From a virus (Duplodnaviria > Caudoviricetes), in IMG/VR virus record IMGVR_UViG_2974549060_000001, positions 11,765 through 75,764 of that record: a DNA stretch of 64,000 nucleotides, one strand, 5' to 3'. Position 1 is the stretch's first letter. The number at the start of each line of letters is the position of its first letter. Shown one piece after another: positions 20,929 through 25,460 of the stretch. The notes beneath the pieces are model-generated. The model searched no databases, had not been told where the DNA came from, and saw only the letters and a list, made by a program, of their open reading frames with translations. The translations under genes were made by a program, and so were the position numbers.

Positions 20929-23037
20929 TTACTTCGTCAGGCTTTCAATCACCTCGACCACTTCATCACTGACGCCTAGAACGGCCCAGGATTTCTTCGC
21001 TGCTTTCTTGATTGCCAAAGCTTGCCCAGCAATTTGAGGGTTAATAATGCCCCCTTTCAGCACTTCGGCCAGTCGAGCTTTAGGGCTACCAGCCTTCGGT
21101 GCTTTTGCTTTCAGGTCGTCGAAACCAGATACGGTTTTAACGGCAACCTTTGGTGCTACCGACGTAGCCTTTTCAGTAACCAGCTCACCGATATCGTCAG
21201 ACAGGCCCAGGGCAGTCCACGACTTCTTACTGGATTTCTTGAAGGCCAACAGTTCGGCAGCTTTAGTACCAGCAGTGGTGCTGGTTGCCGCGCCTTTGAA
21301 CTCATCGTACAGACGCTGAGCTGTTTGGGCTTTCGTTTCTTTTTTCACGTTTTCAACCTTCGGTTCAACCGGTGTCAGATTTTCCACTTTATTAGCCGGA
21401 GCATCTTTCACTGGCTTGAGGTCAGCCGGGAGTACCGGTTTAGACGGTTCCGGTGGGATTGCACCTTCCGCATCAGGAATGTCCAGATTGGTGTTGCGGA
21501 TATCTTCTGGTTGCAGGGGTGCAACGGTAGAATCCACATCCTCCAGATCCGTAATGGTCAGCTTAGTGCCTTGAGCACCGCCGATTTGTACGGTCTGGTC
21601 AATCTTGATGTGCTTACCACGCAGAACAGCATTGAGCAGTTCAGCACCGCCTTTGACGTTCGACAGTTTACCGCCGTTGTTAACGGTGGCAGTCTGGCCT
21701 TTGTCCAGTACGGCCAGGATATCGTAACCAGCAACACGCATTTTATTGTTGCTGTACTCCGGCACCGCGATAACGTCTTCCGGGGCAACCTTACCGATAA
21801 TGGTAATTTCGCCATAGAAGCTACGCAGATAGCTGAGTGCTGCAACATGCAGTCCATTGGAGCAATCCTGACGGCGATCTGGGTCAACCAGACTTTCATC
21901 CATGAAGACGCGGGAGCCGACACGCTGGGTGACACAACGGGAGTAAACGTCCACGTAAATGTCACGGCCCTGCTTGTCCTTACCGGATTTGGTCAGACGT
22001 TTGTAGATCACAATGGAGCCGTCATCAGCAATTGGTAGGTCGCCATGCTTCATGAACTTCATCAGATCTTCAACACTGAAACGACGCTTGTTGACGACAG
22101 TACCCAGACGTTCCAGGAATTTCTGGAAGCCGGTGAAGTCTTTAAGCGTGGTTGCAGCTTTGAGCTGATTGCCCAGATGCTGAGCTTCCGGGATGATGGT
22201 ACGGCCACCGTTGGTAACGGCGACGACTGTTTCATCTTCCTTAAGTCCTTCTTTGAACTTCGGATCGCTCGGCTTGATGCCTTCGGCTTCGAGAATATCC
22301 AGACGAGCATTGGCCTCAGCCAACTTCTCTTCAATGGTTTTCTCTGCCGGGGCAACCGGAGCCAGTGGAGCAGCAGGTTCAATTACTGGCTTATCCCCAG
22401 TCGGGGTTTTCACCAGTTGTACCTGACCACCAGCCAGCAACACTTGCTCACGAATATCCTGAGCTTTAGCGGCTGTTACGCTGGTGGCGATCATCACGGG
22501 CTTAGACGCATTGACCAGATCAGCAGACTCTCTAAAGCCAGCACCGGTAGTTACACGGATAGCCTTAATAACAGCAACCTTATTCCCATCCAGGTAATCA
22601 GTCAGTAGTACATCGTAATTACCCGGTTCGAGGGTTACCTCCTCCGCAGGCTCTACTTCACTGCCCGGCACCACGCCCAGAGTCTGGGGTGATACGTAGG
22701 CAGATGGTGCAGGATCAGCAACGGCAGGAGCCGGTTCAGGTTCGTCTTTAAACCAGTCGGCAATGCTTTTCTTCGCTACCTTGAAGAAACGTATTACACC
22801 ACCACTGGCTTGCTCTGCTTCGCCAAATTCAGGGTTTTCCATGATAGGGCGAGGCATTTCCAGCGACACTTCTACCGGACGCGGAGGAACCTCGGAGAGA
22901 GGTTCTTTTACCGCAGCCATGATATTAGTGATGCGGGGGTCACCCTGTACCAGAGTGACACTGCTGCCATCCGGTGAGAACAGGATGACGTGGCGAGCGT
23001 CTACTGACACCGCCACAACCACTACAGATTTGTTCAT
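20929..23037 (-). CDS. rIIB: rIIB-like protein with inserted ribosomal L7/L12 C-terminal domain
   Basis: [35 protein letters not shown] rIIB core; follows rIIA. Confidence 0.9.
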   Translation of the reverse strand: [702 protein letters not shown]

Positions 23038-25460
23038 TTTTTAGTTCCGTTTTTCATCGCGATTAAAACGAGGGATCGGAAAGCAGCTTTTCTTTCCGGG
23101 TTTGACGCAAGCAGGTCACGAAGTTCATCGATACCGATGGTTTCAATAACGAAGTCATTCATGACTGACTTGAGTTGCTTAATCCAGGAGAACTCCTGGA
23201 GTTTATATTTGTTAACCGCCAGAGCCTGATCGTACTCGGCTTCGGTGATAACTTCGTCCTGCAACAAACGGTACAGGCTGTTATTGTCGATAACGTCCAG
23301 CACACGTTCCAGGTCGGCACGATAGGTCAGCTTCTTCAAGCCAGGTAGCTTGATACCCAGCGACTCAACCAGTCGGAGGACTGGAGATTTAATGTCGTGG
23401 ATGTTGCTGAGGTCAGGGCTACGGTGACGAGTTAGATATTCCTTCATCTCTTTGCTGAAATAGATCTCCAACATAGGTTTCAGGAAATACTGGTCGATGT
23501 GAACAGCACCGCGCTTAATAGCCATGTTGCGTTCTACGCCGGTACGCACTACTACCGCGTTGTCCAGCATGTCGTCAGTCAACATAGCCGGTACGCAATA
23601 GCGCCCCAGTTTGGTGTATTTAACGGCAGCATAGTCAACGTAGAAGATTGGAGCATCCACCCAACCTTCCCACTCGGATTTATCTTTAATACTGGAACGG
23701 TCAAATACGAATCCGTTCTTAGTAGGCTCACAGATATTCCGTAATGGAATAAGACCATTGGATACCTTCGACTTGACTGGTTTCTCTTTGGCGACACGAG
23801 CCTTACGGTTCTGTACGACCGGATCCCACTCATGGTTAAGTGTCAGATCAACGACCTCCCAGCCCGCAGCAGAAAAAGCTGCACGTTCTTTGATGCCATC
23901 GTTCTTCTTCTTACCGATGTGGTACACGTAATAGTTACGGTTGTGGGCACGGTTTTCGAAGCCCGGCCAGTAGCTGCACGAGTACGTGATTTCCTTCAAC
24001 CGGGTGGTTACGAATACCACCGGTTTCTGGAACATTGTAGCCATTGCACGAAGATTCATATTGTCGTTATAGACATGATGGTTACGGGTACGCAGGTTAC
24101 GATACGGCGACCAGACCAGGGAGCGGAGGCTACCCATACTCAGGTCAGGATGCTTCATCACTTTCAGCATTGGTTTAGCCACAAATTGCCAGAACAGCTT
24201 ACGATAAGACAGCTCATTCTTTGACTCCTTCGCTGCATACACCGCTTTCAGGATCTGCTTCTGGAACTTATGCCCTTTAAAGGCTTTCCGATACACTTCC
24301 ATCTCTGCATTACGCATCATGGATTTGTAATGCTTACGGAAGCACTCGCCCAAGCTGCTCAGGATGTAATGCTGAGACAGCGACGGCATAAAGCTAACCC
24401 AGTTAATCCACTTCGTCGTATGGAGCTGGTTGATACTAAGGCTGGTGATGTATTGGGCTACACGTTTGGCATCTGCCGGGATGCTGGCACGAATGTCTTT
24501 CTCAACACGTTCGGTCAGCTTAAGGCAGAGGTCAACCACACCGTTCTCTGTCATCTTCTGGCTTGATAAAGCTTCACGGCTTGGGGTCAATGCCAGAGTG
24601 TCAGGAGCAGCCTGAACCACAATACGATCCACGGCGATGATTTGCATGAAACGCTTAATGGTATCCAGAGCCGGGCGGGTGGCCGGAGTATCCAGAGCCG
24701 GATACATCACACCACCATAACGGATGAAGATCTCATGGTAACCCATGTAGTCCTGATACCAGGTGTTGCTACTGAACGAGTAGGAACCCGGTTCCGTAGA
24801 CATACCCAGTTTAGGTAGTAACGGTTTGCTGGAGTTGGAGTAATACCCTTCAACTTTCAGCTCGATGTTCATCTCGCCGTGCATCGCGATATAACGAATA
24901 TACGTCAGGAACTCGTACACATCGTTCTCTTCGATTGGGATACTGACCTCAAGGCCAGACTCCGTAGTCGGAGCTGACATGATTTCAGTGATCCCTGGCT
25001 TACCACCGGATTCGACTGAGGACTTGGTGATGTTGTACACCGACATCGTACCATTATGGTAAGACGTGACACGGAAGCTGTCGGTATACGCGAACGGTGA
25101 CTTACAGCCCAGGCCAAAGCCACCAGTGGATTTACTGTCGTTCTTTTTGGTAGACGCACCATAGGTGCCGTATACCGCACCCATACTTTCTGGGGCGATA
25201 CCCTTACCGTAATCACGGAAGGTCAGAACAAAGTCTTCACTGATACGCACCAGACCGGGCACATTGGTTTTACCCGCGTCAATATGTGCATCCCAAAGGT
25301 TGCAGAGCACCTCACGGGCTACAGCTAACTTCTGGTTTGAATACAGGTTCGCAGACAGGATCTGGAAGAACGCCGGATCATCGGTGATACCGAAGTCGAT
25401 AGTTTTACCACCACCCAGAGTAGCGGAAGTAGCCAATTGAGTAGAGTCAGATACATTCAT
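23034..25460 (-). CDS. rIIA: rIIA-like protein with GHKL ATPase N-terminus
   Basis: LYSNQKLAVAREVLCNLWDAH, RDYGKGI, GGFGLGCKSPFAY. Confidence 0.92.
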   Translation of the reverse strand: MNVSDSTQLATSATLGGGKTIDFGITDDPAFFQILSANLYSNQKLAVAREVLCNLWDAHIDAGKTNVPGLVRISEDFVLTFRDYGKGIAPESMGAVYGTYGASTKKNDSKSTGGFGLGCKSPFAYTDSFRVTSYHNGTMSVYNITKSSVESGGKPGITEIMSAPTTESGLEVSIPIEENDVYEFLTYIRYIAMHGEMNIELKVEGYYSNSSKPLLPKLGMSTEPGSYSFSSNTWYQDYMGYHEIFIRYGGVMYPALDTPATRPALDTIKRFMQIIAVDRIVVQAAPDTLALTPSREALSSQKMTENGVVDLCLKLTERVEKDIRASIPADAKRVAQYITSLSINQLHTTKWINWVSFMPSLSQHYILSSLGECFRKHYKSMMRNAEMEVYRKAFKGHKFQKQILKAVYAAKESKNELSYRKLFWQFVAKPMLKVMKHPDLSMGSLRSLVWSPYRNLRTRNHHVYNDNMNLRAMATMFQKPVVFVTTRLKEITYSCSYWPGFENRAHNRNYYVYHIGKKKNDGIKERAAFSAAGWEVVDLTLNHEWDPVVQNRKARVAKEKPVKSKVSNGLIPLRNICEPTKNGFVFDRSSIKDKSEWEGWVDAPIFYVDYAAVKYTKLGRYCVPAMLTDDMLDNAVVVRTGVERNMAIKRGAVHIDQYFLKPMLEIYFSKEMKEYLTRHRSPDLSNIHDIKSPVLRLVESLGIKLPGLKKLTYRADLERVLDVIDNNSLYRLLQDEVITEAEYDQALAVNKYKLQEFSWIKQLKSVMNDFVIETIGIDELRDLLASNPERKAAFRSLVLIAMKNGTKK

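Follow-up and report, generated by a model that had tools for sequence, protein, structure and literature searches.

Within a 64-kb stretch of viral DNA (hereafter the window), taken from the 75,764-bp IMG/VR virus record IMGVR_UViG_2974549060_000001, we examined an open reading frame (ORF) of 702 amino acids (aa) whose product carries a domain related to the head of the bacterial ribosomal stalk protein bL12 (L7/L12). The ORF is identified as rIIB by family homology, which includes the core found in T4-type rIIB, and by its rIIA neighbour: it matches PHROG 2886 ('RIIB lysis inhibitor') over its full length (E 7e-189), PHROG 609, 11221 and 3803 match at aa 298-450, and tblastn finds T4-like rIIB with E values between 1e-9 and 1e-14. 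The gene adjoins rIIA on the downstream side, with the rIIB ATG overlapping the rIIA stop codon, and the two are predicted to be translationally coupled. By rIIB similarity the window falls near the Pectobacterium phages CB3, CB4, Nepra and Possum and the Kosakonia phage Kc283, and on the same basis the source phage is a Cbunavirus-like, N4-type schitovirus.

An initial annotation of the locus had placed a bL12 C-terminal domain (CTD) at positions 22411-22620, and the minus-strand translation of this interval is exactly the peptide given there, i.e., rIIB aa 140-209. The assignment was borne out, as aa 139-211 constitute a genuine bL12 CTD by profile, by fold and by their helix 4/5 residues. 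In a search with Pfam Ribosomal_L12 (PF00542), which had been proposed as a check, aa 141-208 align to profile positions 1-66 of 67 and score 41.5 bits within the whole protein (E 1.7e-10) and 48.6 bits as a segment alone (E 1e-12), well above the gathering cut-off of 25.9 bits. Against all PDB chain sequences, phmmer returned bL12 chains only (best E 6e-8), and the phmmer alignment to E. coli bL12 reproduces that of the initial annotation. An AlphaFold2 model of the full 702-residue protein, based on a 69-sequence alignment and with a mean predicted local distance difference test score (pLDDT) of 73.8, contains a compact beta-alpha-alpha-beta-alpha-beta unit at aa 140-211 (pLDDT ~85; strands at aa 140-148, 181-188 and 204-211, helices at aa 153-164, 168-176 and 189-201), which is flanked at aa 98-134 and 214-231 by stretches with a pLDDT below 50. 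The best Foldseek match in the PDB is the E. coli L7/L12 CTD 1ctf (template modelling score 0.88 on the target, root-mean-square deviation (rmsd) 1.5 Å, 38% identity), and the best match in VIA-align, among 48,161 representative chains, is M. tuberculosis bL12 (8yeq_A; Z 12.9, rmsd 1.3 Å over 71 residues). Searches with the full model by both programs gave convincing matches for aa 137-212 only, with the N-terminal domain and the core being barely sampled, while the helical C-terminal bundle (aa 565-631) produced generic helical-bundle matches only (Z 5-7).

In the numbering of mature E. coli bL12, which is used throughout, the window copy is identical at K65, V66, I69, K70, R73 and E82, has L80 replaced by Phe, K81 by Arg and K84 by Ala, and contains a one-residue insertion ahead of P91. 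This mapping confirms the earlier statement that the first five of these residues are retained and that K84 is Ala. With bacterial bL12 (PF00542; 1CTF, 8YEQ) the domain shares the fold and the factor-binding motif of helices 4 and 5, and it is 38-41% identical to the enterobacterial protein. It differs from bacterial bL12, besides the Ala at K84 and the insertion, in that it is embedded in a 702-aa phage protein and is not accompanied by the N-terminal dimerisation and uL10-binding domain: no Ribosomal_L12_N domain was found in rIIB with Pfam at E<=1, where just PF00542 and a sub-threshold NfeD match were returned. Since this N-terminal domain is absent, the rIIB bL12 head cannot be attached to uL10 in the manner of a stalk subunit.

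Table 1. Features of the rII locus in the window, with the evidence on which each assignment rests.
Feature	Residues (aa)	Positions	Strand	Basis
rIIB homologue, 702 aa	1-702	20929..23037	minus	ORF list; PHROG 2886; tblastn to N4, Cbunavirus and T4-like rIIB
rIIB N-terminal domain, mixed beta/alpha	1-97	22747..23037	minus	AlphaFold2 pLDDT ~75-86; alignments
Upstream Pro/Ala/Glu-rich linker, predicted disordered	98-138	22624..22746	minus	pLDDT ~30
bL12 (L7/L12) C-terminal domain, beta-alpha-alpha-beta-alpha-beta	139-211	22405..22623	minus	PF00542; Foldseek; VIA-align; pLDDT ~85
Downstream Pro/Ala-rich linker, predicted disordered	212-233	22339..22404	minus	pLDDT ~40
Conserved rIIB core	234-500	21538..22338	minus	invariant columns concentrate here
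rIIB C-terminal region, disordered stretches and helical bundles	501-702	20929..21537	minus	AlphaFold2 secondary structure; alignment
Helical motif KKxxKKSW..LG[LV]SD, first copy	~594-615	21193-21258	minus	
Helical motif KKxxKKSW..LG[LV]SD, second copy	~672-693	20959-21024	minus	
rIIA homologue, 808 aa, GHKL-type ATPase		23034..25460	minus	PF13589 HATPase_c_3 30.2 bits; PHROG 2979 E 3.8e-238
HNH_3 endonuclease ORF, 171 aa		20332-20847	minus	44.6 bits

The Pro/Ala linkers that had been described on either side of the domain are indeed present, both being rich in Pro, Ala and Glu and modelled as disordered. The end of the upstream linker aligns with the bL12 hinge in the HMMER alignment, and the downstream linker has the lowest identity and the highest ratio of non-synonymous to synonymous substitution rates (dN/dS) among all rIIB segments. 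The N-terminal domain that precedes them is kept across N4-like rIIB proteins, is specific to rIIB and has no assigned family. Within the core, aa ~292-445 form the portion held in common with T4-type rIIB, as covered by the matches of T4-like phages. The helical motif that occurs twice in the C-terminal region is found in every aligned N4-like rIIB. On the other side of rIIB, the HNH_3 ORF is situated between rIIB and the gene for DNA polymerase I, whose start is overlapped by the HNH_3 stop codon. Since the annotated records of five relatives (Possum, CB1, CB4, Kc283 and EK8) show no gene in the gap between rIIB and the polymerase, the HNH_3 ORF is probably a mobile homing endonuclease.

The fusion itself has already been recorded, both in print and in databases, and the window contributes a further example together with evolutionary detail. 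Mizuno et al. (2019; Nat Commun 10:752, PMC6375957) listed seven cultivated phages with bL12 domains, among them Erwinia phage Ea9-2 with its 724-aa protein AHI60108 (their Table 1), and described that the residues for contact with uL11, EF-G and EF-Tu are conserved, that the position of the domain in larger proteins varies and that some homologues are without it. The terms rIIB and N4-like are absent from that paper and its supplements (PMC6375957). We find AHI60108 to be an rIIB orthologue, as its gene directly follows an rIIA-like gene and PF00542 matches aa 146-210, which substantiates the statement in the initial annotation that bL12 domains had been reported in N4-like phages. The Ea9-2 protein is ~37% identical to the window protein over 98% of the length and carries the domain at the same position, but its PF00542 score is lower (28.1 vs. 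41.5 bits) and Ea9-2 is a Johnsonvirus and not a Cbunavirus. The 699-aa rIIB proteins of the Cbunaviruses CB3, CB4, Nepra and Kc283, which belong to different species from the window phage, are 78-82% identical to the window protein over the full length and 84-86% in the domain, have the same linkers and show the database architecture PF26926+PF00542. Published descriptions of these four phages are silent on the bL12 domain. Public sources name some of the homologues 'ribosomal protein L7/L12', and in the literature searched there was no paper that combines rIIB with ribosomal protein L7.

The wording of the initial annotation, according to which the domain is inserted into rIIB, is adequate as a description of the domain architecture, but not of a recent event, since the domain is old and probably ancestral. 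T4 rIIB (312 aa), the partner of rIIA in counter-defence against lambda RexAB, resembles the window protein in the common core (~31% identity), in lying next to rIIA and in belonging to a conditionally essential family. In tblastn, T4-type rIIB matched the window protein only at aa ~292-445, whereas the N-terminal extension, the bL12 domain and the C-terminal repeats remained unmatched, and the bL12 domain therefore lies within an extension common to N4-like rIIB. Among the 120 best homologues from a collection of 5.8 billion proteins, those of 680-725 aa mostly have PF26926 and PF00542 and those of ~600-630 aa have PF26926 only, according to precomputed annotation, and a local search with a hidden Markov model (HMM) detects the domain in 75 of the 120, with its relative position (~aa 125-225) unchanged. 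Most enterobacterial N4-like rIIB proteins carry it at this position.

In a FastTree phylogeny of 122 proteins, calculated from the last 470 residues so that the domain is excluded and with no root being inferred, proteins with the domain occur on either side of the deepest split, and the 45 proteins without it are scattered over this core tree, often on short branches nested within domain-bearing clades. By parsimony, 13 transitions between presence and absence are needed, of which well-supported branches enforce at least 11, compared with an expectation of 36.7 for shuffled labels. Given the one fixed position and the nested absences, the simplest reading of the pattern is a single old gain followed by many losses, at least 11 in number. 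As such, the domain is probably an ancestral, old part of a schitovirus-specific N-terminal extension of rIIB.

For phage N4 itself, the rIIB protein gave no Pfam match. With an HMM built from phage copies without N4, however, aa 153-219 of N4 rIIB (L003:1462-3552) match the full model at 29-34 bits, and the best of 1000 shuffled controls reached 8 bits. Given this distance to the shuffled sequences, the prototype rIIB carries a diverged bL12 domain that is missed by Pfam, in which K65, K70, L80 and E82 are changed and R73, I69 and P91 are kept. A tblastn search with the N4 segment retrieved only phages that are >=99% identical to N4 over the segment. Two homologues hold a segment at the domain position that was detected neither by the phage L12 HMM nor by Pfam (P0088) or was not detected by Pfam (P0119), and a homologue search with aa 100-260 of P0088 at E<=1e-10 returned P0088 alone.

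Some of the losses can be followed at the nucleotide level. The rIIB protein of phage CB1 has 611 aa as opposed to 699 aa in CB4, and the difference is a single clean in-frame deletion of 264 nt that removes exactly the domain (L006 vs. L007:480-960) and ends in a short direct repeat, GAACCnGAAGC, found in both linkers. Two domain-less proteins of 611 aa (P0022 and P0023) sit in different subclades of the core tree, a hint that this deletion has either arisen repeatedly or been spread by recombination. A larger natural rearrangement is seen in Possum (L001:2902-4410 compared with window positions 22315-25460), where codons 1-18 of rIIA run in frame, at a GGCGGTAA microhomology, into rIIB at approximately codon 218. 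This rIIA'-'rIIB fusion removes nearly all of rIIA together with the N-terminal third of rIIB, i.e., its N-terminal domain and the bL12 domain, and represents a natural analogue of the classical T4 deletion r1589. Horatius and Arno152 carry the same fusion, as judged by protein length and matches. In the paper on Possum the fusion is annotated plainly as rIIB, and rIIA is never mentioned.

Heads of the bL12 type are also encountered outside rIIB. The roseophage DSS3P2, likewise a schitovirus, encodes a free-standing bL12-like protein of 107 aa (orf7, ACL81275; L011:3487-3810) directly after RNAP1 and ~16 kb from rIIA/rIIB. Its match to PF00542 is confined to the helix 4/5 part (profile positions 9-36, 28 bits), and BLASTP gave no alignment between it and the window domain. 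The rIIB of DSS3P2 (476 aa) has no Pfam domain match at E<=0.1 and hence no detectable bL12 domain. That N4-like roseophages keep a free-standing bL12-like protein alongside a short rIIB with no Pfam match suggests that schitoviruses benefit from a bL12 head with or without its fusion to rIIB, and it weakens the idea of a job specific to rIIB. In a search of a representative library, many cellular proteins with 2-7 tandem bL12 CTDs were found (P0122-P0167), among them a 593-aa protein of Nannocystis pusilla with seven copies (WP_346660302), a Ser/Thr kinase with three copies, fusions to LRV repeats and one protein combining a Ribosomal_L10 domain with three copies; the ranking favours multi-copy L12 proteins, whose scores add up, and is neither a list of nearest relatives nor a basis for a tree of origins. 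The bL12 head is, to judge from such architectures, a module that is widely reused outside the ribosome.

Where it is present in rIIB, the domain is selectively maintained. Nei-Gojobori estimates for the window against CB4 and Kc283 (synonymous divergence 0.65-0.80, and saturated for more distant pairs) give a dN/dS of 0.15-0.17 in the domain, as against 0.11-0.14 in the core and 0.22-0.34 in the downstream linker, which indicates purifying selection on the bL12 domain. Across 66 distinct rIIB-embedded copies, helix 4/5 is the best-conserved part: R73 and P91 are invariant, V66 and L80 are found in 64 copies each, K70 in 63, E82 and D85 in 60 each and I69 in 57. Position 84 is variable (Lys in 29 copies, His in 12, Ala in 10 and Val in 5), and variation is greatest in helix 6 and the last strand. 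After sequence weighting, the set of five factor-binding residues (K65, V66, I69, K70 and R73) takes ranks 1, 4, 5, 7 and 18, in whatever order, of 65 positions (permutation p 1.5e-4), a ranking that is partly circular, because the same residues dominate the profile by which the domain is detected (ascertainment bias). On the ribosome, the exposed helix 4/5 face of bL12 catches the G domains of EF-Tu, EF-G, IF2 and RF3. Helices 4 and 5 of bL12 bind helix D of EF-Tu, and the CTD contacts EF-G (Kothe et al., 2004 and others, as cited in PMC3505967).

The rIIB protein thus contains a folded and selectively maintained bL12 head that is tethered between disordered linkers and is accessory and non-essential. 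Since its best-kept face is the one that ribosomal bL12 uses for translational GTPases, the domain most likely serves as a mimic of the stalk head on a flexible tether. With helix 4/5 exposed, the residues K65, V66, I69, K70, R73, L80 and E82 would then form a putative docking surface for translational GTPases or for other ligands of this face, and bound partners would be held at the rIIA/rIIB complex or titrated towards it. Any benefit would vary with the host, in agreement with the known role of rII as a conditionally needed counter-defence module. Both the conservation of helix 4/5 and the purifying selection are consistent with the recruitment of EF-Tu, EF-G or IF2 that the initial annotation had proposed, and we regard the chances of the mimic as evenly balanced.

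Several observations weigh against it. CB1 is a plaque-forming isolate, so its growth on the laboratory host does not require the domain. Plaques are likewise formed by Possum, Horatius and Arno152, which are without both the domain and rIIA. K84 varies among the copies and is Ala in the window, four of the face residues are exchanged in N4, and the residue ranking is subject to the circularity mentioned above. It also has to be considered that the isolated bL12 CTD binds factors weakly. Finally, a tagged bL12-domain protein of phage FSL SP-076, albeit a different protein, proved unusable for ribosome purification (Mizuno et al., 2019, PMC6375957).

In a closely allied alternative to factor recruitment, the tethered head might soak up host immune proteins or toxins whose action requires docking on the ribosomal stalk, and thereby shield the ribosomes. 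Such a decoy would be in line with the anti-defence role of rII, as rIIA and rIIB are conditionally essential counter-defence genes, and with the patchy presence and repeated loss of the domain, which are typical of arms-race accessories. The Foldseek neighbours moreover include the bL12 chain of PDB 8phj ('cA4-bound Cami1 in complex with 70S ribosome'), Cami1 being, as Mogila and co-workers reportedly found in 2023, a CRISPR-associated RelE-type RNase captured by the stalk. Cami1 has also been cited as an example of an L12-mediated interaction (PMC12179292). Yet GTPase binding explains the conserved face equally well, and the single domain of each rIIB would face competition from tens of thousands of ribosomes with 4-6 bL12 copies apiece. 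We further know of no stalk-docking effector in Pectobacterium or other enterobacterial hosts and consider the decoy unlikely. A largely structural or neutral role, in which the domain would have no specific partner and would persist by inertia as a stable spacer or solubility module linking the N-terminal domain to the core, is rather improbable. The many clean deletions with no loss of viability and the unrelated sequence that P0088 and P0119 hold at the domain position would agree with this, but the dN/dS of the domain is comparable to that of the conserved core, conservation concentrates on solvent-exposed helix 4/5 residues and not on the hydrophobic core alone, and a spacer would not need constancy of R73, K70 and V66 across lineages whose cores are only 35-45% identical.

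The domain could also bring rIIA/rIIB onto or close to ribosomes or let them modulate translation directly, by contacting uL11 and the GTPase-associated centre or by replacing a bL12 head. The bL12 CTD meets the N-terminal domain of uL11 via the cleft between helices 4 and 6 (PMC3505967), and one peptide of a phage bL12-domain protein was detected in high-salt 70S preparations (Mizuno et al., 2019, PMC6375957). However, conservation among the phage copies is lowest in helix 6 and the C-terminal strand, the bL12 N-terminal domain was not found in the Pfam search at E<=1 and the tag purification by Mizuno et al. failed (PMC6375957), which makes such an anchor decidedly improbable. The folds of ClpS and bL12 are related, and ClpS chains are the next-best structural neighbours of the domain (VIA-align Z 9.6-11.3; Foldseek E 0.08-0.9), which raises the question of an adaptor that binds N-degrons or ClpA-type unfoldases. 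For ClpS there is, however, no Pfam match at E<=1, identity is 8-19% compared with 30-38% to bL12, the bL12 matches have the lower rmsd and the higher Z (12.9), and the helix 4/5 motif specific to bL12 is present. We hence rejected the identity as a ClpS-type N-degron adaptor on the grounds of profile and closest structure, and a function of this kind is highly improbable.

Returning to the stalk-head mimic, it is possible, though only as a tentative extension of the homology, that rIIB uses its bL12 head to engage translational GTPases or stalk-docking immune effectors, and that rII, at least in N4-like phages, acts via the translation apparatus in addition to the membrane. This hypothesis would be cheap to test, since nature supplies the controls in the form of CB1, with its domain-only deletion, as compared with CB3 and CB4, and of the rIIA'-'rIIB fusion of Possum. 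If it is true, counter-defence by rIIA/rIIB would, at least in N4-like phages, work via the translation apparatus as well. The mode of action of rIIA and rIIB has been a puzzle since Benzer, and a conserved translation-factor-binding module within rIIB would provide a rare concrete handle on a partner.

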